A DNA stretch of 56,807 nt, filler included, from Catajapyx aquilonaris (Eukaryota), in the NCBI GenBank assembly GCA_000934665.2. It is 2 parts of 2 records of this genome, joined end to end, with 100 filler letters (N's around TTAATTAATTAA, not from the genome) between each part and the next. Parts side by side here need not be neighbours in the genome. Positions count along the whole stretch, not along the records: positions 28,660 to 56,807 come from JYFJ02004959.1; 1 more part is not named here. One strand, given 5' to 3'. The position numbers and the translations under genes were made by a program. Of the stretch, positions 4,129-56,807 are shown piece after piece; the stretch's first letter is position 1; each line of letters opens with the position of its first letter. The notes under the pieces are model-generated. The model was not told where the DNA came from. It searched no databases and saw only the letters and a program-made list of their open reading frames with translations.

Positions 4129-7040
4129 ATGGAACATCTAACCGCAGACGTGTCGGAGGTTCCCGAAGATGAGGTGGATTTGGGGGAAGAGGAAGAAGGA
4201 TCTCCACAATTTCCGCAAACATGTGTGGTACTACGGCTTTCACCTACCATCAGACCAGAAGCACTTCGATGGTTGGTGAACAAAATCAGAGGCCGGAAGA
4301 GAGACGGAGGAGCAGAGTTGTTGGTTCGAAGAGAACCGGCAATAGACAACGACCCTGAACAGGTTAGAGGTTTAGACCAGACTGGTGTAACGGATAATGT
4401 CACCTTACTTTCAGGGTGTGGTTCTTCATGTGACTGCATCTCGAATCAAGTTGCTAGAAGTGGCTGAAGCTCAGGAGTTACGGAAGCGAGACCTTTCTGG
4501 ACGACTGCGGGAGTTCACAGTGGCTGATATGGATTCGTTTCTGCCAGAAGGAGCCCCATTGGATTGTTTACTAGGGTCAGCAGATAGGCAAATGATGGTA
4601 GCTCATGAGCTGGAAAATATGAGAGCCAATGAGCACGAACATCACATACCTGGATATCAAGGAGCGGAACTTTATTCGGGACAGCCTATTCGTGAGTATA
4701 ACTTACATTGTTGATGTCAACTTGTAACAATTTGTGTTTCAGTTCATATGTACATGAAAGAGGAGTTGATACGTGCTATGTACCCACTACATGACGATGA
4801 AATGTTGAAGAAGTTTGCAAGCAAGTGGTACTGGGCATTATTTCAAAGTCAGCCGTTTGGTAAGTGACGTCATTGTTATACCTACAAGTACAAACAATGA
4901 GGTACGGTACTATATTATACTGATTCCTTGCAGAGGATATCAGAGCCTACTTTGGAGAAGCAGTGGCCATGTACTTTAATTTTTTGGGCTTCTACACTGC
5001 TGCTCTGGTCATCCCAACTGTATTAGGACTCTTCTTCTGGCTGGTTGCCCCAGAAACTCCCTACATACTATCCATCTTCTGCGTCATCAACCTCATGTGG
5101 GCCACCATATTCCTGGAGGTGCGACGAAACCTCAGTGTTTCTCAGACGCGTTTTCTCTCTTATTTTTATTGCAGATGTGGAAACGACATTGCAGCGTGGT
5201 GGCCTATGGTTGGGGGACATTGACCTTATCCAAATGGGAGGAACCTAGACCTAATTATCATGGGCCGCAAGGAAAAGATCCTGTTACAGGTCGAATCCAA
5301 CCTATCTACCCATCATGGAAGACTACTGTTAAGGTAAGCTATTGTACTCATTGAAACCTGTCTATAACGGAATAGGCTACGAGTAACTTGGTTATTTGCA
5401 GGTGTATGTTGGATCCATGCCAGTTCTATTAGTTCTGCTTTATTTTAACTTCCGAATCATGATATTTTTCTTGAACATGGAAGAAACCTTGATGGAACAA
5501 AAATCTAGGTCTGGTAGTCAGGTGGCCGGAATTTTGGCATACCTACCAAGCATAGGTTACACAGTTTTTGTACTGGTGGCTAACATGGGATATCAGTGGC
5601 TGGCAGATGTGCTGACAGAATGGGGTACGTCCCAGGCTACATGTGTTGGCTTGTCAAGATCATGCATAAAGAATAGTCTGTTGCAGAAAACCACAAGACG
5701 CAGACAAAATTCGAAAATCATCGGACAGTGAAGCTGGTGGCATTCGAGTTTCTCAACACTTTCATGTCGTTGTTTTACATTGCATTTTACCTGCAAGATA
5801 TGGACCAGCTTAGGAGCGTAAGTTTTGCAATATAATATTACTCTCATTTACTTAAATTTTAATTTACTCGTAGCAACTTCTGACTATGTCCATCGTCCAT
5901 GCGTCTATCAACCAATTCGCTGAAGCTGTCCTTCCTTGTGTGCTGAGGGATGCTTACAATAAGGTATCTCTTAATCAATATTTATAAATATTCTGCAGAA
6001 GGGCCCACAAAGCCTTGCAGGTTAATGAAACGTATTATTATTTATTATTATTATATTTATAAATATTTAAATACACACTATCACATACCAAATATTTTAG
6101 GTTGATGAAGTGATCAGACATTATACTTCAAGACTGATTGAGCAAAAACCAACTCTCGGAAAGTGCCATGCAGAGTTGATCGATGGTAGTTACAGTTATT
6201 TGGATTTAGAAATGTTGGACAAGGATGACCCCAGGATTCAGGTGGCTCGAAAGGAAGCTGACAAAGAACCATATTTGGTAAGCAAATTTACTATCTGGTG
6301 GTCCATTGTGGCTGGGTCAAGTATAGATAATTAAGTAACATTATTTTCAGAGTACTTACGACGACTTCTTAGAACTGTTTCTTCAGTTTGGATACGTGTT
6401 CCTGTTCTCTGCAGTTTCTCCCCTGGCGTCTCTATTGGCGTTAGCTAACAATGTGTTGGAGATACGCGCAGATGCGTACAAACTATGTTGTGTGTTTCAA
6501 CGACCCATACCAAAGCGTGTGAAAAATATTGGAGCCTGGCAGGTATGGTGTAGTACATACAATTATATTTCATATCACTTTTTATGATTATTCCAATATA
6601 GAGAGCCTTTGAAGCCATGGGATTTCTGGCAGTGGTGACAAACAGTGCCCTTCTGTTTGTGTCACCACAAATGAGATCATTGGCAGTGGGTCTGAGCGAT
6701 GTTCATTGGCTGCTTCTCTTCGTGGTGGTGGAACATGCTCTGCTGTTCACTATCACTGCTCTGCACATCCTCATCCCTGATGTTCCAAAAGCAGTAGCAG
6801 ATGCACTCAAAAGGACAGAATATCTGTCCCATCTAGCACTCAGGCGAGAGGTATTTATCCATTGTAGTGTAAAATGTGGTCAAATAATACCACCACTTGT
6901 TTTCACAGCAATCCAGTAACACTCGACGCCAGCTATCTCGAAGATTCAAGTCAATCCATGTCCCGAGAATGCGTAACAAGACTGAAGATGTCCTCAAGCA
7001 TCGTTCTGTACATGTTAGCGGAAGGCCTAATTTGCATTAG
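4129..7040 (+). CDS. ANO10: Anoctamin-10/TMEM16K-like Ca2+-activated lipid scramblase/channel (Axs-like), 12 coding exons, ~721 aa
   Basis: Hand-spliced GT-AG model with consistent phases: 4129-4362, 4415-4691, 4743-4859, 4934-5118, 5175-5333, 5402-5624, 5687-5817, 5874-5963, 6101-6277, 6351-6542, 6602-6850, 6909-7040 (2166 nt, ends TAG). Anoctamin motifs: [101 protein letters not shown]. The short loop after YIAF ([11 protein letters not shown]) fits the ANO8/ANO10 clade, and the length favours ANO10. Confidence 0.93.
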
Positions 7041-12883: not shown

Positions 12884-13176
12884 NNNNNNNNNNNNNNNNN
12901 NNNNNNNNNNNNNNNNNNNNNNNNNNNNNNNNNNNNNNNNNNNNNNNNNNNNNNNNNNNNNNNNNNNNNNNNNNNNNNNNNNNNNNNNNNNNNNNNNNNN
13001 NNNNNNNNNNNNNNNNNNNNNNNNNNNNNNNNNNNNNNNNNNNNNNNNNNNNNNNNNNNNNNNNNNNNNNNNNNNNNNNNNNNNNNNNNNNNNNNNNNNN
13101 NNNNNNNNNNNNNNNNNNNNNNNNNNNNNNNNNNNNNNNNNNNNNNNNNNNNNNNNNNNNNNNNNNNNNNNNNNNG
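12884..13176. other. Assembly gap (293 N) flanked by poly-C and poly-G runs
   Basis: Run of N in the sequence. Confidence 0.99.
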
Positions 13177-13593: not shown

Positions 13594-15604
13594 TAGATCT
13601 GGAGAGTCCGTATCTTACTTGCCAAGATCAATTATTTTCTCTTGAATACCCTGCCGAATTTCAAAAATGGCGAGTGGTCATCGGGCAAAAATGTTCATAT
13701 TGAACCCAAGATAAAAATAATTTTTATGCGTCCCAATTTTGTCATTCTTGATTTATAAGCAAAATTAATTGGGTGACATATTTTACAGTCGTCCATAAAA
13801 TTCCTCGGAGGATCTGATTGGCTCCGACTCTAAAATGGCCTATGAGTATAGTACTATGAGCGGTGTCTGATTGGATGGGAATCCAGCATGGTCGCATGTA
13901 AACAGACTCGTCTCCCATTGGCTCTAATCTAGTGCGGTATTTCCGCCAACTGCCATGCGTTCATGAGGCCCCGCGCCTGTACCCACCGGGGGGGGGGGGG
14001 GGGGGGGGGNGGGGGGGGTATATAGATACAACAACCGACATCGACATAAGTACGGGAGAAATTAAAAGTATTATTCTTAATGACCGCGTACTTTTGACTG
14101 GCTCACTTTTATATTAATGAACCTTGTTGAACAACGATACATGCAAAGGACATGACACCACTTCAAATTGAGGTTGCTCTTTTATTTTAATCTTGGTGCA
14201 ATATGAAATCACAATTGATTTTTTACAACTTAAAACTGTGCCTCTCACGCCAGGAAATTGGAACAGGAAGCAGTTTCCTTAGTTTAAAATGCAGTTTTGC
14301 AGTGGTTCTCTTCGAGTAACATGTAACTAAGCTACTTCATTGCCAACATGGTGTAAGCCGAAATGAGCAATGACAGGTTGAAGTAAATGAGATGAAATGC
14401 GGGTCAAGTCAACTAACGTAAGTTCACAGCGGTATTTGTCAGAAAGTGGCTTACTAATTAATGCTGTATGTTTTATTTTGAAGAACAAGGGTGACAACCA
14501 CATCCATGCAATGAATATTTCCGAGCGGTCTGTCACTCAAGTTACATATCTCACGATGCATTCACAGTAATGAGCAAAATAAATCATCACTCACCTTAAA
14601 GCGTCCAGAGATGAAGTGTGCAGCATGAAAAGAAATGCCATCAATCCACATGCACGAAGGCTGTAAGAAATGTAATTTATAAAACAACACATTTTAGACG
14701 AAAATGTGTAAGTTTTATTCTTACCTTCTAATACGGAAGGTAACCCCCTCAAAAAATTAAATAATAATAGTTTCTCCTGATGCATGCGACAGCATGCCAT
14801 CTGGTGGTCTTCTCACTGCAGACCCCCGTTGCGGCAAGTACGTTATCTTTACTAAGGAAATTATTAAAAGACACCTGAAATGAGCGTGATTCCATGCAGA
14901 GAAATGACGGAAGGAAAATGTCATCAAATTGTAACAAATTCATCGAGGAAAGGTTATAATTTGGAAAGAAAAAAAGTTCCACAATGCAAATCGAGACGTG
15001 TGTACTGTAACTGATCCTGAAATCCAATACCTTGAAATTAGTGTCACACAAACCTTACTGAAACGGATTCAAAGTTGGAAAAAAAAACTGAAACTTGACC
15101 ATTAGCTATCAGTAATTTGCTCGGAACTGCAAATGAAGCACAAGAATGCTCCACGAACGAACTATTTGTTTCCTGCAATTGATTAGAAATAGTGCACGTA
15201 TATTATTAGTTTGTGTCTCATGAATCCTGACAGTTGGGTGCAATTCACGCCCGTGGACTAGATCATCTGAAAAAATTATTTTGTATCAGCGGTCGTACTT
15301 TATGGTACTACCTCTCAGCAGTGTCACTCACTTTTCCCTTTCTGAGCATAAAGGAAATGCATACAAAATGTGTAAATTAATGCTGGACAAGAAATACCAG
15401 ATGGTACATTACTTTCATGAGCAAGTTTTAATAGCTATGTTATGAGAGATGAATGAGTTTATGTGAAAGTACTTGACCGGAGTGAGATGAGCGCCATTAC
15501 ACAAGTTAAATTAACAATGACACCCAATGAAGCCATCAGGCAGTAGGCGAAATAGAAAACAGCTGAATTTTAATGTGTGTGAAGGTAACACAAATGTTAT
15601 CTTA

Positions 15605-24595: not shown

Positions 24596-25909
24596 TTATT
24601 TTGGTTTAATTTTGGCCCCTTCTGGTTTATGCTGACCCTTCTCATGGTGATAAAGGGAGCCTGAATGACTGAAAGCAGCTGTGCAGAATCGGCACTTGAA
24701 GGGCTTCTCGCCTGTGTGGGTGTTGATGTGTTGCTTGAGACAGATGGTCTTGGCGAAGCTCTTCCCACAGTACTCGCAGCGATAGGGCTTGTGGCAGGAA
24801 TGGGTCTTAACGTGCTGAGCCAGGTTGACCTCTTGCATGAAGGACTTGCCACATTGTTGGCACTTGAAGGGCTTCTTCCCACTCTTCTTTCGGCTGCCCC
24901 GCCGCTCCTCTGCCATCATCATACAGCCATCCATCTGCTTGTCCTCACCAGCATGAGTGTGCTGGTGCTGGACCAAGTGAGTTTCGTGCTTGAAGGTCTT
25001 TCCGCACAACTCGCATTCAAAAGGCTTCATGCCTGTGTGGCACTCTTCATGAGCAGAGCACTCGGTAGGGGAGCCAAAAGGCTTCAGGCAATATCTGCAC
25101 AAGTGAGGGCCGTTGGGCAAGTCCATTGGATTGCTCGGAGCTATCAGTTGTCCAGCAGTCAGGCTCAGTCCGAATTCCTCCCCCAGTTTCTGACGTTTTG
25201 AGCAAGCCGCACCCATTCCTTGGAAATCAGAAAAGCCACTTTCGAAAGGAAAGAGTCTTTTTTGGCTGCAGTTTTCTTGGCCAACGTGACTACTTTCGTT
25301 TCCTACGCTGATGCCAATCATTCTTCTGGGCCTGGGGCCCTGGACTCTCTTTCGTTGCAGCTCTTGTTTATCTAATCTGTCACGTGGGTATCTTCCATCA
25401 CAAATCTCGGCATTGCAGCAAATTCTCCTTCCCCGTGGAAAATATGGAGCACCTTTGGCCCTTGTAGGCAATGAGTGCATGCCTGGGCAGTGAAAAGGAT
25501 TCGTCTCAATCTCCAGGCTAGAATCGGACTTTGGAATAAGGAAATGGTCTAGGTGAATGTTATGAATACAATCACTACCAAAGTGCATGAGATTATGATC
25601 GATATCACAATTTGCTTGCAGCTGATCACAGTGAGCTTGGCCCGGGTGCTCTCTCATGTGTTGTTCTGCCTTATGATGGTCGGGTTGGATAGGCAAGAAC
25701 ACGTTATCCACATCCATCGACATTTTGACGGCTTCAGAAACGTCAGTGAACTTGAACATATTGGTGTCACTAGCCTTCTGGACTTCGCTGCACGATTCAG
25801 TCAGGAAAAGGGTCTTGCCACTTGGGACCATGTTTTCTGGATGAATGCAAAAGTGTTCATTGGTTGGTTCACGATCAGTCTTCAAAATCTGCAATCCAGT
25901 TTCAGCCAT
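24596..25909 (-). CDS. C2H2 (Kruppel-type) zinc-finger protein, 437 aa, five C-terminal fingers, intronless CDS
   Basis: Long ORF with fingers CRYC..HEECH, CELC..HQHTH, CQQC..HVKTH, CEYC..HINTH and CRFC..HEKGQH, and linkers TGMKPF and TGEKPF. An upstream acceptor (cttctcag| at 26013) and donor (aag|gtaggt at 26650) suggest 5' UTR exons. Confidence 0.92.
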   Translation of the reverse strand: MAETGLQILKTDREPTNEHFCIHPENMVPSGKTLFLTESCSEVQKASDTNMFKFTDVSEAVKMSMDVDNVFLPIQPDHHKAEQHMREHPGQAHCDQLQANCDIDHNLMHFGSDCIHNIHLDHFLIPKSDSSLEIETNPFHCPGMHSLPTRAKGAPYFPRGRRICCNAEICDGRYPRDRLDKQELQRKRVQGPRPRRMIGISVGNESSHVGQENCSQKRLFPFESGFSDFQGMGAACSKRQKLGEEFGLSLTAGQLIAPSNPMDLPNGPHLCRYCLKPFGSPTECSAHEECHTGMKPFECELCGKTFKHETHLVQHQHTHAGEDKQMDGCMMMAEERRGSRKKSGKKPFKCQQCGKSFMQEVNLAQHVKTHSCHKPYRCEYCGKSFAKTICLKQHINTHTGEKPFKCRFCTAAFSHSGSLYHHEKGQHKPEGAKIKPK

Positions 25910-27349
25910 GGTAAAAACGGGTCCGTCACCCCAAGACCAGTGAGATGCCGTGATTGCTAGTTATTTCCAACTTTTATCATTGAGATTGTTTTGTGGTGAC
26001 AAGACCGAGGAACCTGAGAAGCAGAAGGGGAACTCTTTGTAACTCAATGTCTTCACCACCTAAAAATCTAATGTAGGCCACAAAAAAACTTTGAAACACA
26101 GATCAAGGCCAACTAATTCTGTCTGTTCATATTACATTATACTTGCAACAGAAGCAGGCAATGTCTTGTGTGCATTTACCACAAACTACTTAGGCAAATG
26201 ACACAACATAGGCCTATAAGCTAGATTCAAGTAGCTACATCATGCGGCTAATTTCCGGACCATGTAGCACACTAGCATAAATTGATGACTTGCCTCATAG
26301 AACAAAAGTGTCACAACTTAAAAGACTATTATTCATCCTTATTTCAATTACTATATTGCTACAAGCAGCTTCAAGCCATGGCTGTCTAGAAGGCAGCAAG
26401 GTGCAGACCTGTTATGTCAGGGTGCACTCACAGTCTCATACAATCAAAGTGATAAAGGACCTTGTTAAGTATGAGCAAGTGCACTTTTTTGGTATGTTAT
26501 TCGTGAATTTTTAAAAACTGATGCGTAGGAAGCATTCTTAGCCAAGACGCCCCAACAATGAACCACGAACCTTTGCTTTCCTGAAGTTATGTTCAAATAA
26601 AATTGACACCAACTGGGATTGTTAAAGCAAGGTGAACATTACCACCTACCTTTGAGCCATTGCCGTCGTATAATCGGAAGCCCTCACTGAATTAACTAAT
26701 CAAAACCCACTCCAGCGAAATTAAACTACACTGAATGATTCTCAAGTACATCATGCCAGGTAGCAACAATCGTGATTTGATATATAGGGTGAGGGTTCCT
26801 ATCATTTTAAAAATGGCTATGATTTCCACAGATTTTTTTCCCACTTAAGCATTTGGGTTTACGCTACAGGAATTTTTCTGCCGACGTCTTCCCAGCAACC
26901 GGGGACAGAAAAATTTAAAAGTCAGTCCAGGCTGATATAATTTTAGTTCCTAATGGCACTCCAACCAATATTCATACTCAAGCATAGTGCCCCTACTCGT
27001 ACGAAGGATACTTCAAGCTCATATTGCACCAGAAAAATTACGAATGATACTATATTGTTACCTAGTTCTAAGCCACACATTCTGCCTCATGCCCCATAAA
27101 ATTGCCCGTAAAATCATGCCAGGAGGCAAACGATCAGTAATGACGTAACATAGCATTTTTTAAAAACAGTACTACAGTGTGGTTAACCCTGCATTTCTTG
27201 GATACTGTACCAGGAAGAATTTCTCGGTTTTAAATCACGGGTGAATCTATTTTCCGGACAGGTCTTCCATTTACGTCGTGACTCAGGGCTGGTTTAATGA
27301 ATAAAAATTAACAGATTCCGGCATTTTCTCGGCACAAAATTTCGCCTTA

Positions 27350-28559: not shown

Positions 28560-28659
28560 NNNNNNNNNNNNNNNNNNNNNNNNNNNNNNNNNNNNNNNNN
28601 NNNTTAATTAATTAANNNNNNNNNNNNNNNNNNNNNNNNNNNNNNNNNNNNNNNNNNNN
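28560..28659. other. Artificial contig-joining linker N44-TTAATTAATTAA-N44
   Basis: Exactly 100 nt. The central 12-mer (28604-28615) is a palindrome giving stop codons in all six frames. Confidence 0.92.
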
Positions 28660-28906
28660 GGGAGGTGGGGGGACAAAAATTACTATAAACAAAGTATTTT
28701 CTACTCCTTACGTCTTTAGACAGCACTGACTGGACACCCAAGTTGGTGAATTTCATTAACTATATTATGCAAACATGAATTATGTAGAATTTCTGAAGCA
28801 CTCCTCTTGACAAAATTCACCAACTTGGGCGTCCAGTCAGTGCTGTCTAAAGACGTAAGGAGTAGAAAATACTTTGTTTATAGTAATTTTTGTCCCCCCA
28901 CCTCCC
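28660..28906. repeat. Near-perfect inverted repeat at the contig edge
   Basis: Arms of ~94 bp (28660-28753 / 28813-28906), one mismatch seen, ~60-nt spacer. Confidence 0.85.
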
Positions 28907-46402: not shown

Positions 46403-47744
46403 CCAATGATGCTAAATGCAATTGACACATCAATTGGAACTTTTCAGTGTTCATACGAGTGTATGACAATCTGCAATCTCCCAAAAATAGTCTACATGTC
46501 CTCCACGGTCAGTTGAGAAGAAGTTAGTATATTTAGCATTAGGCCTATAATATGCTATTGTAACTATTTCTTGTACAATATTAAGGTACAGTGCGTTCTT
46601 GAGAGTAGGCTACGTTGGGCTACAAGAGGACGTAAAATCGTATGACTGCGTTTTTTGGTGTGTGGGCAACTTACTCGTTTTGTACCAAAAGGAGGAGCAC
46701 ACATTGACATACAATTTAGTAAAATAACAAACCCCCAGTAGGCCTATATATAGGAAAAGTGAAAATCTGAAATAAATATGGACAGGAACAGAATGATGGG
46801 AGCTAAACTGGAATCACAGTGGAACTGGAAATATAGTGGAGACCCACACCCATGACACGTTATACGTACAATGTTGCCTAGAATATCCCTTTACCATCCA
46901 CCAAAGCGAAAGCACGTTTTTCTGCACCCTGTATAAGTCTGATGTATCCACATAGGAGGGACTCATTGGTGACACCTTGGTGACACTGGCAGTGAGGGTT
47001 TAAAACTGAGACATCGATTGGGAATGTACGTGCACCTTTTGTAATATATTGAACCAGCATGCTATCACCTGAAAACAGCATTGAATTGGCAAGTAGGCTA
47101 TGCACTTGTTGCTTCCCTCACTATATAGGAGCGACCCATCAGAGACTTCAATGCTCGTCTTACCTCGAAAAATATTTTTAGCAATAGCTTACTGAACAAA
47201 AGTAGAGATTAATCACTGGGGTGGGACCAGGAGGACAGAGGACGCGTAATCCAGTTGGTATTCCTGCATTCACACTGGAATTGCTGACTTTTGGTTGTTG
47301 GCGATTGGAATCACCAGAACTGTATAGAAGCAGCTCAACGACGCGAAGCGACGGCTAAATCAGTGTGAACCAAACTTGGAATAGCCGACCAGTGCCATTT
47401 AGAACCAGAAAATCCTCACCCCGTTTTACGGTACCGTAAGTGACTGTGACTAACAAGTGACTAATCAGTTTTCACGCCATTATTATTTTCACTTTTTCTG
47501 AAACAAGCGCCAGTAGATGGCCACATATGTGGTGCCACCTAGCAGACAGCTGGGAAAGCTCCCACACCTCGCGCTTTGTTGGGGGTAATCTCGGGGGTAA
47601 TATTCCAAGTTTGCAAACTGCGAAGATTGTTGGCACTTCATCAGATTACTTTCCCTAACAGCGACCGGCATATACTTGCGAAGGTATTAAAATATATAAA
47701 TTATTTTGAAGACAAATACATTGGCTAAGAAATGATATCATATA

Positions 47745-53162: not shown

Positions 53163-53518
53163 GGGGAGGCACGGTGGCCGAGATGGTAACGTCTCGGCTT
53201 GCTATGCGAAAGGTCCCGGGTTCAAATTCCTACCCGGGAGCAAACCTTTCGCTTGTGTCATTGGGTCGTGACTCGTGACCCATGCCTAAGGAGGCGTCTT
53301 GGCAACTTGACCTCCTGGGGGACTGCACCTGGCCCCACCGTTGGACAATGCACCTGCACTTGTGTCCCCTCCCCAAATCCCCTCCCTTACCCAATTTCCT
53401 AGTATTCCTTGCACCGGAGATCGAAGAAAAAACCATTAGAAAGACTGAATGGTGGTAGACCACCCCCCTATAACGACCAAGAGGTTGTATCACGGGGTAA
53501 ATGAAAAATAAATAAATG
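53163..53518 (+). mobile_element. tRNA-derived SINE, family A
   Basis: A box TGGCCGAGATGG, B box GGTTCAAATTCC, A-rich tail, 13-bp duplication AATTATTATGATC (53150-53162 / 53519-53531). Confidence 0.9.
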
Positions 53519-54377
53519 AATTATTATGATCAATGTAAAAATAACAATGTCTTTTTTGGCAATGAAGGGGTATTTTTCTCTTCATTACTGTTCTTGAGTC
53601 CTCCGAGACACAGGGGTCTCGATTAAGTTTTACTGTAGTAAATAGGTGTATGTAGACATTTAAGAGTGCTCAGGGGAGTGAAAGTTTTGGGAGTAAAAGA
53701 CATGTGATAGCAAAAACAAGGCTTTTTTATAGATTTCCTCCAAAAGTGCATTCTCCTGAAGTATATTTCTTAGTGCTATAAAGAAATAAAGGGATTGTAA
53801 TAATTATAATCTCAAATGGACAAATTAATATTGAAATATTGCAATGTATTCAAACCAATTTCGTTAGAAGTTGTGACAGAAAAAAACAAAGTTTACCTTT
53901 TGCTTCAGGGACATGCTGCATCATAGTGAAAAGTTTCATTGGCGAATTAGATCCCACTCATGTTGTCCTCTCATGCCTTTGGTGCTGCAGCGAAAATTAA
54001 TATCCACTGCTGACATGGCCTTCTCTATGCTATCATAGCATAGAGATAGCCCTGTGTCATGCTGTTTCATTTTGGTTGAAACAGAGAGCAAGTATCACTA
54101 GCTACAGTGTCACTAGCCCAGCAACAATGGAGGCATTCATTTCCTAAGAAAAGGTGAATTCTCAATAGCACTTCCCATATATAACGAATTCCCGCTTATA
54201 ATGTTACTTTGGGTCGGTCCCTTGAATAAGAGTGTTATATCGAGGTTTTACTGTAATGAGAGAATTTTTTCTTCATTTGAACAGGCCTTGAATTGTAGTG
54301 TTGGTGTTTATTAGAGTAAGTTTCTTTAATATTTGTTAGTCCGAGTGCTTTTATTAAAATCCTTGATAAAGTACTTT

Positions 54378-55142
54378 TATTATCATATGTCAAGCCATTT
54401 AAAAAATAACACACTCCTAATCTTGCCTGCTTGAATAAGTAAATTGCACGTAAATTTTATCTTCAATAGCATCTCTGTACAGCTGGGGATGGCGCAGAAA
54501 AGAAGGCCGCACGGCCCCAGAGGGTTCGCATAGAGTATTGTGAAGACAGCTGCACCTCATCAGCCACCGGAAGTATTAGTGGAACTGTGTCGAAAGACCC
54601 TGAGCTTCTGAAGAAGCGCGCACAAAGATTCGGATCCATCAGCTCAAAATATCTGATGGTGGTACGTACATGAACTATAGTGGATGAAATGTTGGGAGAG
54701 ATTAATATTTTTGCAAGATGGTAAAGACTTCATTGGAACATCAATAATGCCTCAACTCCAAGCTTATATTATCATATGTCAAGCCATTTAAAAAAATTGC
54801 ACACTCTGCTTGAATAAGGAAATTGCATGTAAATTTTATCTTCAATAGCCTCTCCGCACAGCAGTAGATGGAGCAGAAAAGAAGGCCGCACGGGCCCAGC
54901 ACATTCCTGTAACGTCACCAGGAAACTGTTGCACCTATGCAACCACAGGAAGCATTGGTGGAACTGTGCCAAAAGACCCTGAGCTTCTGAAGAAGCGCGC
55001 ATTCCGATTTGGAACCATGTGCTCGAAAGATCTAATTGTGGTACGTACATGAACTATAGTGGATGAAATGTTGGGAGAGATTAATATTTTTGCAAGATGC
55101 CAAAGACTTCATTGGAACATCAATAATTCCTCAACTCCAAGC
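54378..55142 (+). repeat. Tandem duplication, two units of ~380-390 bp, each carrying an exon and its intron flanks
   Basis: Units start TATTATCATATGTCAAGCCATTTAAAAAA (~54378 and ~54767) and end CCTCAACTCCAAGC (54763 and 55142). Confidence 0.92.
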
Positions 55143-55393
55143 ATTACACAATACACATGTCTTCCTTGGAGCACAGATACCTTGTCCATTACACTTGTTA
55201 GAGCCAGGCAACATGAATATCCTTCATCATTTTGACCACTAGGGGACCCTGCACATATCATGAGTTCCTTCTCAGTAATGCTTACGAAAATTTAACATTT
55301 TCACAGCTGAAGGAGGAAGAGGAACTGCAAAAGTGGCGAGAACATTTTGACCGATGGGAGAAGGAGATGACATCCAAGAAGTCTCTAGAGTAG
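54470..55393 (+). CDS. Divergent SARNP/CIP29/Tho1-like gene fragment (C-terminal RFG-repeat region); may be a pseudogene
   Basis: Phase-0 GT-AG exons 54470-54661 (..EKKAARPQR..DPELLKKRAQRFGSISSK), 54849-55040 (..EKKAARAQ..DPELLKKRAFRFGTMCSK) and 55307-55393 (LKEEEELQKWREHF..stop). These are colinear with the SARNP pattern KKAARAARFG..DKLKERAQRFG..EDDEKLKKRKERFG. No SAP-domain exon or start codon was found. Confidence 0.65.
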
Positions 55394-55656
55394 GGTGGTA
55401 GAAAAGGGTAGGGGACACGGGACAGGGAGATGGAGGCCCGGAGGGGATGGTTGATGACGAGGTTTACGGTGACTTGCTGGGTGCGGGGGTGCGAGGAGCG
55501 GGATGGGACAGAAAAAGAATTTCACATGTATTCACTTTGCATTGCCCCCTCCCCGCCTAATTGGTCAGAGAAGGTTCACATTGTTGACATTGTCCTTCTT
55601 TCATTAAGACAGGCATTTAAACCACTAATAGCCTACATCAAACATGCAGCTTTGTA

Positions 55657-56101
55657 CAGTTGAATCCGGATATAACAGACTTCAAGGGGCCGTGGAGAAA
55701 AGTGTTATAACCGAGGTCTGTTATAGTCAAATTGCAGCTTTTGGAACGAATACAAAAAGTTTTCTGCTTTTCATATGTCTATAATGCACACTAGGTACTG
55801 CTAGTTGATTAATGAAATCCATAAAAAATGTAATATTAGCTCACCCGAAAATTATGCAAAAAAAAAAAGAAGAAAAAAAAAAGAAATTTTCTTCTGCCGT
55901 TTTTTTTTTTTGCCAATTTTATACCAGAAAAGGGACATTTTACTATCCCCGAGGGGCCGAGAAATGGTATGTTATACCCTAGGTGAGGTGAAAATGAGTC
56001 TGTTATGTCAGGAATAAAAATACACAAGGACTTATAACAGTGTGCCAAGACCAACTTTTCGAGTCTGTTGTAACAGAGGCGGTTATATCCGGATTCAACT
56101 G
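55657..56101. mobile_element. Tigger/pogo-type MITE
   Basis: TA|CAGTTGAATCCGGATATAAC...GTTATATCCGGATTCAACTG (20-bp perfect TIR); the right flank is CA rather than TA. Confidence 0.85.
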
Positions 56102-56807
56102 CATTAACCCATTGTTCCCAAGGTTGATCTACTTATGATATTTTAATAATATTCTCAGAATAAGAGGATAATAAGTGAAATACGCAGAAGCTAGAAAGGT
56201 CTCCCTTGCATTTTTCATCATCGTAGTCTCGGCTAGGAGAGTAAACTCTTGCGCAGGCCAATTCTATCATAGAGAAACAAGAACCACAAAATTCCATATG
56301 CACTTGACTGCCGATTATCCAGGTGCGGATTATCCGCGGTGCAGGTTATCTGTGCATCGCCAAAAACAAAGGTTAGAATCAGGGCTGCAAAAGGAAACTA
56401 AACTGAAAGAACCGTATGTCCTGCGTTTCTGTTAACAGAAACGATTCTGGAACCGAAACTAAATGCAGGAACAAAATGCTGGAAACGAAAGTCAAGGAAA
56501 CAATAAAACTTCGGGTTCTCGGAACGAAACAATTCGGGAATCGAAAGTGATTTAGGTAACCGAACCGATTTGGTTTCGTTTCCTGTGACATGAGCTATGA
56601 CGTAGCTGTAACCAGCGTGTCGTTCCATTACGGCCGCCGGGCCGCGTTGGGACGTACCGGTACCTGCGGTGTTGGCTGCCCGTGGTGAAGGAAGCCGACT
56701 TGCGACTCATGCTCGTGTTCTGGCCATGTTATTTATTTCCGTTCTCCTAACGTGTCACGGGCTTCACTGTTCGGAGTTCGGACGGGTTTGTGCCATGGAG
56801 GCAGTGG

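Follow-up and report, generated by a model that had tools for sequence, protein, structure and literature searches.

A tandem exon pair in Catajapyx aquilonaris that is more diverged than its flanking introns

Conversion between duplicated sequences, of the kind considered below, is described in the RH and MHC literature as well as for the opsin genes of primates. In the L/M opsins of gibbons, the exons were reported to be significantly more diverged than the introns, and the conversion tracts were mostly intronic (PMC3213168). For the Dscam genes of Daphnia and Drosophila, gene conversion between paralogous exons was not detected in the analysis described in PMC3236188. With respect to coding content, the closest described system is that of SARNP/Tho1, in which the DDX39B-interacting motif is defined as K1xxxR5xxR/K8F9G10 with R5 and F9 invariant (Xie et al., PMC10508174), and the orthologues considered there carry 2 to 6 such motifs each.

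Here we describe two tandem exons, A and B, in Catajapyx aquilonaris, which resemble each of these systems in part. Like the primate L/M opsins as described in PMC3213168, they are tandem duplicates in which the divergence of the exons, synonymous sites included, is significantly greater than that of the introns; unlike the opsins, where whole genes are concerned, the duplicated exons are single segments of 192 nt within one gene, with a period of 379 bp. Moreover, the opsin work draws on cross-species and polymorphism comparisons, whereas the Catajapyx pair is known from the comparison of A with B in one genome. The mutually exclusive clusters of arthropods, e.g., Dscam (PMC3236188), share with this locus the tandem arrangement of homologous exons of equal length and an arthropod-type genome, and differ from it in that no conversion was detected in the clusters analysed there, while in our case exclusivity is not enforced by the sequence.

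Architecture of the duplicated units and support from contigs

The DNA stretch analysed (hereafter the window) comprises 56,807 nt of C. aquilonaris, filler included (GCA_000934665.2), of which positions 28,660 to 56,807 come from JYFJ02004959.1. The region from position 54374 to 55142 is a head-to-tail duplication with a unit of about 380 nt, each unit consisting of an exon and its flanking intron. Tandem Repeats Finder returned a single array at 54427-55142 (period 379, 1.9 copies, 85% matches, score 1078), and a second repeat search gave the same register, with two long families spaced by 379 and a distal upstream block spaced by 389. Unit A (54374..54763, plus strand) is 390 nt long and contains 96 nt of upstream intron, exon A, and 102 nt of downstream intron; unit B (54763..55142, plus strand) is 380 nt long and contains 86 nt of upstream intron, exon B, and 102 nt of downstream intron. 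The base at 54763 (C) is common to both units, and the similarity ends at 55142. Searches with tblastn and blastn found no third copy within the window.

Exon A (54470..54661, plus strand) and exon B (54849..55040, plus strand) were predicted from the reading frame and the AG/GT sites, and each comprises 192 nt, that is, 64 codons in phase 0-0. These coordinates, together with the equal length, the open frames and the intact splice sites, reproduce the original prediction made from the sequence. Both exons are preceded by ...ttttatcttcaatag, which ends in caatag at the exon border, and are followed directly by gtacgt. In each exon a single frame is open, and it is open through both copies. The intron between them (54662..54848, plus strand, 187 nt) is wholly made of repeat-unit sequence and has no stable fold (z +1.6). 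An 11-nt segment upstream of exon A (54416..54426, plus strand) is absent from B and holds the word CTAAT, which we take to be branch-point-like on the basis of the consensus. A predicted last coding exon, called from the frame only, lies at 55307..55393 (plus strand; 28 codons plus a TAG stop); it follows ...ttttcacag and continues the frame of exon B. The strand opposite both exons is open too, at 54466-54729 (88 codons) and 54775-55053 (93 codons) on the minus strand. These two frames run partly through conserved intron, no family was matched by them (88 and 93 aa), and they were taken as a by-product of the composition of the coding strand.

The region was compared with Logan contigs from three DNA runs of one sample, which is possibly the assembly's own source, so that the comparison is a consistency check and not an independent one. 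The contigs reproduced the window over 53500-55680 with zero other letters. The contig depth was 31 over exon A, 30.3 over exon B, 24.9 over the downstream flank, and about 49 over the common identical piece of intron; depths of 25 to 31 for exons and flanks, with about 49 for the common piece, fit two copies at single-copy depth. In this one sample, the read-depth check that had been proposed for collapsed copies therefore showed two exons at single-copy depth and gave no indication of a collapsed array or of alleles assembled side by side. An assembly artefact, in which alleles or collapsed copies had been placed in tandem, might be suspected from the N gaps elsewhere in the window and from the contigs, which break within an identical stretch of 62 nt and nowhere else. 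These breaks are explained by the word length of the contigs, presumably 31, which is shorter than that stretch. On the other hand, one contig (54691-55067) runs from A's downstream intron with A's variants across the junction and through exon B. Moreover, a depth of 25 to 31 is found at either exon and in the flanks, and no third variant was seen; an artefact is scarcely credible on this evidence.

Several other features of the window were recorded. About 260 nt past the predicted stop codon, 55657-56101 is occupied by an element of 445 nt whose terminal inverted repeats (CAGTTGAATCCGGATATAAC) are 20 nt long and perfect; its contig depth rises to thousands, while the flanks lie at about 30, which marks it as a MITE-like repeat of very high abundance. 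The stretch 54088-54339, about 200-300 nt upstream of exon A, reaches a contig depth of 140-990 compared with about 30. In some contigs, position 54255 is joined to 55655, where the MITE-like element has its edge, and the stretch probably represents part of a related repeat. At 4924-6916 (plus strand), four open frames match Pfam Anoctamin PF04547 in profile order (E 2e-30 to 1.3e-6) and are exons of an anoctamin/TMEM16 gene. An open frame of 454 aa on the minus strand (24599-25960) encodes C2H2 zinc fingers within its 150 C-terminal residues (zf-H2C2_2, E 2e-17; zf-C2H2, E 6e-12). At the far end, 56600-56807 (plus strand) is G+C- and CpG-rich and ends in ...gccatggaggcagtgg with a frame that runs off the window; no Pfam family was matched by this frame, and the segment may represent the promoter of the next gene together with its first coding exon. 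Runs of N are located at 12884-13175 (292 nt), 28560-28603 (44 nt) and 28616-28659 (44 nt), none of them near the twin exons, and single N letters at 14010, 19307 and 28015.

Exon divergence exceeds intron divergence between the two units

The alignment of the two units revealed 47 differences in the 192 nt of the exons and 25 in their 64 amino acids (61% amino-acid identity), and both counts agree with those first obtained by hand. The downstream intron segments, 54662-54763 and 55041-55142, differ at 3 of 102 positions (54721, 54722, and 54749), the number given originally. In the upstream intron, where a few substitutions and one indel of about 10 nt had been noted, we counted 5 substitutions in 85 aligned columns, an 11-nt indel and a 1-nt one. 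Exon divergence (47/192) is far above that of the unit intron (8/187 aligned positions, the two indels aside; Fisher P = 9.5e-9), and the comparison restricted to ungapped blocks gave the same result (intron 6/178 vs. exon 47/192, P = 1.6e-9). The excess of exon over intron divergence that had been predicted between the tandem units thus holds on alignment.

Within the exons, the amino-acid changes are concentrated in codons 16-32 (A, 54515..54565; B, 54894-54944; plus strand), where 14 of the 17 residues differ, in line with the original prediction. The block KDPELLKKRA (codons 42-51) is unchanged between A and B and encloses the sequence DPELLKKRA, which had been named as invariant. Exactly eight codons differ by synonymous changes only (codons 5, 8, 33, 35, 53, 54, 59, and 62), where about eight had been estimated. 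All three positions are changed in 3 codons and two positions in 8 codons, and the outermost differences lie at base 2 of the exon and at the fourth base from its end.

The substitution rates and the intronic divergence, whose calculation had been suggested together with the prediction, were obtained by the Nei-Gojobori method for the exons, giving 17 synonymous differences in 47.2 sites and 30 non-synonymous differences in 144.8 sites for the whole exon (dN 0.24, dS 0.49, omega 0.49; pN vs. pS, P = 0.05). The intron distance is 0.034, and dS is about 14 times that value, so that the exons look old and the introns young. The synonymous differences (17/47.2) exceed those of the intron (6/178) at P = 8e-9. 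The 39 codons whose amino acid is shared by A and B contain 8 changes in 30.3 synonymous sites, whereas the intron rate would predict 1.0 (Poisson P = 1.2e-5). In codons 16-32, dN is 0.68 and dS is 0.73 (omega about 0.94), while omega is 0.30 in the exon outside these codons, which indicates that the exon has evolved as coding sequence. The 47 exon differences comprise 21 transitions and 26 transversions, and CpG is touched by only 9 of them; transitions that do not outnumber transversions, and the small share of differences touching CpG, fit old divergence rather than CpG decay.

These values bear on the proposal of a recent duplication followed by very fast evolution of the exons, either under positive selection or through an exon-specific mutation bias. 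The clustering of amino-acid changes in one segment, in 14 of 17 codons, is what such a history might leave. However, omega is 0.49 overall and only about 0.94 in codons 16-32, synonymous changes are in eightfold excess, and 3 codons have all three positions changed; a synonymous excess together with triple-changed codons could not have been gathered by selection on the protein in a recent duplicate. As for a mutation bias linked to transcription, the introns are transcribed with the exons, and both would be affected. Fast evolution of the exons is contradicted by dS, and we regard it as highly improbable and close to refuted. Diversifying selection, one of the causes put forward in the original prediction, is accordingly not supported as the cause of the contrast between exon and intron, since dS lies far above the intron distance; the accompanying warning that selection alone may not suffice, based on the synonymous differences, proved correct.

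The encoded module and its possible relatives

Both exons gave weak hits to Pfam PF18592 (Tho1_MOS11_C), exon A at residues 48-56 (15.4 bits, E 0.018) and exon B at residues 4-17 (16.3 bits, E 0.0094), and neither reached the gathering score of 26.8 bits. A search of PF18592 with pieces of 27-28 aa yielded no match. Among the nearest ESM Atlas clusters, PF18592 occurs in 46% and 31% of the members (score 0.87-0.88), which serves as a lead only. At the level of motifs, the exon resembles a SARNP/Tho1 module in which a linker would separate a decayed motif from an intact one. The putative decayed motif is formed by codons 11-20, which read KKAARPQRVR in exon A (54500..54529, plus strand), with K1, R5 and R8 kept, F9 replaced by V and G10 by R, and KKAARAQHIP in exon B (54879..54908, plus strand), with K1 and R5 kept, H at position 8, F9 replaced by I and G10 by P. 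The intact motif corresponds to codons 46-55, LLKKRAQRFG in exon A (54605..54634, plus strand) and LLKKRAFRFG in exon B (54984..55013, plus strand), in which R5, R8, F9 and G10 are all present and position 1 is L in place of K. An AlphaFold2 model built with the two-row alignment had a low mean pLDDT (55.9) and contained one helix, at residues 44-53, which ends just before the FG of codons 46-55.

Compared with the SARNP/Tho1/MOS11 motif arrays (PMC10508174), codons 46-55 fit at R5, R/K8, F9 and G10, and the variable number of motifs in the orthologues treated there means that a gain by exon duplication would fit the history of the family. The differences are that the otherwise invariant F9 is missing from the first motif of both exons, that the Pfam score is below the cut-off, and that a SAP domain was not found upstream within the window. 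Because of the Pfam score, membership of the SARNP/Tho1 family is not established. The SAP domain was searched for in 140 plus-strand frames of at least 30 aa from 41-54.4 kb and in 120 frames consisting of plus-strand frames of at least 45 aa and both-strand frames of at least 75 aa (24-41.4 kb) together with six anoctamin frames; neither set, from which short exons and any exons outside the window would escape, gave a match. Upstream of exon A, motif scans detected no further DDX39B-interacting motif, and neither Pfam scans nor motif scans detected upstream exons. Two Pfam matches were judged to be due to chance, namely HeH/Skp1_POZ at 47543-47725 (HeH, E 0.057), which has no start or splice context, and PBDC1 on the frame of the last exon (E 0.055).

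Wider homology searches returned nothing of use. With exon B, a larger protein search gave 49 candidates, none of which scored; with the A/B alignment, 780 candidates were obtained, none at E up to 10, and a search for near homologues gave no candidates. A search of representative proteins found 0 proteins at E up to 0.001, and the sequence matches in the PDB (E 1.6 and 4.8) were regarded as chance. These null results are no sign of novelty, because 64 aa with a single short motif make too weak a query for libraries of this kind.

One further sequence was found in an 848-nt contig from run X5, which carries the same species label and whose kind is unspecified. It matches the window only at 54856-54900, with 4 other letters in 45, and is unlike the window on both sides of this match. 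The contig aligned to B and not to A, which differ from each other at 7 positions in that stretch. Read by eye in the frame of the exon, its flanks encode a ...KFG motif ahead of the matching segment, and ...KKAARAQ is followed at once by an intact ...RFG. Over the next 15 nt, a count by eye gave 8 differences between the contig and A, 8 between the contig and B, and 9 between A and B. Since its motifs are intact, a more canonical SARNP-like sequence probably exists elsewhere, and this suggests that the gene in the window is a diverged paralogue, the module of which would have seen its first motif decay differently in A and in B.

The apparent existence of a paralogue raises the possibility of a recent 379-bp duplication, as judged from the intron divergence of 3-4%, in which the exon segments of one copy were subsequently overwritten from one or more diverged paralogues through ectopic gene conversion, with the conserved motif blocks as homology anchors. 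Codon differences of several nucleotides would be natural if they came from a donor, and the diverged codons 16-32 sit between two identical blocks. Yet B is only 41/45 identical to the contig of run X5, so that it was not recently converted from that sequence, and neither copy is close to it over the following 15 nt. The differences also extend to the second and the fourth-last bases of the exon, where a donor confined to the exon would have no flanking homology, and no further copy was found within the window. We consider an origin of this kind unlikely.

Proposed short-tract gene conversion, splicing and the probable age of the pair

The differences between the two units are distributed as a mosaic of identical and diverged blocks, also inside the exons. 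The two motif cores, at codons 9-15 and 42-51, contain 0 differences in 12.3 synonymous sites, while dS ranges from 0.55 to 1.2 in the other exon segments. A Sawyer-type runs test, in which the 52 differences were shuffled over 337 columns in 100000 trials, showed that the longest identical run, 62 nt at 54659-54720, was reached in 61 of the 100000 permutations (P = 0.0006); inside the exon, a 30-nt identical run had a P value of 0.004 (100000 permutations). The switch from low to high divergence lies at most 21 nt from the 5' edge of the exon and at most 3 nt from its 3' edge. Homogenisation of the introns by gene conversion had been among the original suggestions, along with a gene-conversion test. 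The significant clustering of differences and the precedent of the opsins speak in its favour, and from these we infer conversion as the process.

Our best reading, to which we assign a probability of about 0.45, is that an old exon pair has had its flanks and motif blocks homogenised by gene conversion in short tracts. Under this reading, a module of a SARNP/Tho1-like protein would have been duplicated long ago to give the two exons, in each of which a linker separates a decayed DDX39B/UAP56-interacting motif from an intact one. Repeated short non-allelic conversion between the adjacent units would have kept the rest of the 379-bp unit nearly identical, as in concerted evolution, and the homogenised part would include all the intron DNA of the unit and the two motif-coding blocks of the exon. 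Codons 1-8, 16-41, and 52-64 would have escaped, either because converted copies were selected against or because these segments had become too unlike for heteroduplex formation, and they would retain the old divergence at synonymous and non-synonymous sites alike. The similarity of the whole unit up to the common junction base is as expected of a tandem duplicate in which exchange never ceased.

Four points weigh against conversion. The presumed age of the pair depends on dS as its single measure, in the comparison of A with B only. An omega of about 0.94 in the hottest segment is no direct sign of protective selection. The motif blocks, of 21 nt and of 30-44 nt, would need very short tracts, or else an extra constraint on purine-rich words. 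Finally, the switch in divergence at the exon edges is sharper than a conversion model alone predicts.

A related but quite unlikely reading is that the pair is an old, maintained switch between alternative helicase-binding modules of a SARNP-like export factor, the two versions of which differ in the linker and in residues adjacent to the motifs; selection would then resist homogenisation of the exons while the introns evolve in concert. In a variant of it, two old balanced alleles would have been captured in tandem through unequal crossing-over.

The pair may also be viewed as old exons that are spliced alternatively, perhaps mutually exclusively, and whose introns are alike since they act as splicing-regulatory sequence constrained beside both exons. 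The equal length (192 nt) and phase (0-0) of the tandem homologous exons and their identical splice sites are as such a pair would have them, and the 11-nt indel, through which B alone lacks the CTAAT word in its upstream intron, could render the two acceptors unequal, so that they are spliced with different efficiency. Under this explanation, however, nearly all of the 187 intron positions would have to be constrained. Rfam gave no match at E up to 5, the intron folds were no more stable than shuffled sequences (z +1.6 and +0.9), and the best complementarity with the flanks was a 19-nt AT-rich pairing (79%), 1 of 29 pairs in the scan, so that docking/selector pairing is unconvincing. Folding of duplexes between the flanks and the unit intron produced long, loose duplexes that behaved inconsistently against shuffles, and this approach was discarded as uninformative. 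Nothing in the sequence enforces exclusivity: of the mechanisms considered (steric hindrance, U2/U12 incompatibility, frame shift with NMD, and docking/selector pairing), none was found in the sequence. The A-B intron is 187 nt long, and the donors of both exons are GTACGT, which we take to be U2-type by consensus. As 192 is a multiple of 3, the joint inclusion or joint skipping of the exons keeps the frame. A constrained intronic element, although it was among the original suggestions, is thus not borne out, and we hold this explanation to be very doubtful. Serial inclusion would be the simplest expectation; most likely, exons A and B are spliced in series, which would add one more predicted helicase-binding motif to the protein.

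Short-tract conversion between old exons, which we prefer, is a process known in kind from the opsins, and the case of Catajapyx would be unusual mainly in scale, with units of 379 bp and tracts of tens of bases. It implies that the similarity of introns can badly underestimate the age of an exon duplication, and that a high amino-acid difference in young-looking twin exons need not mean positive selection. If a maintained switch or balanced alleles were the true explanation, the locus would be an instance of selection that opposes gene conversion at the scale of an exon, in a class of genes from which this is not known. Provided that a functional SARNP-type factor is encoded here, the duplication would be one route by which the number of helicase-binding motifs changes.
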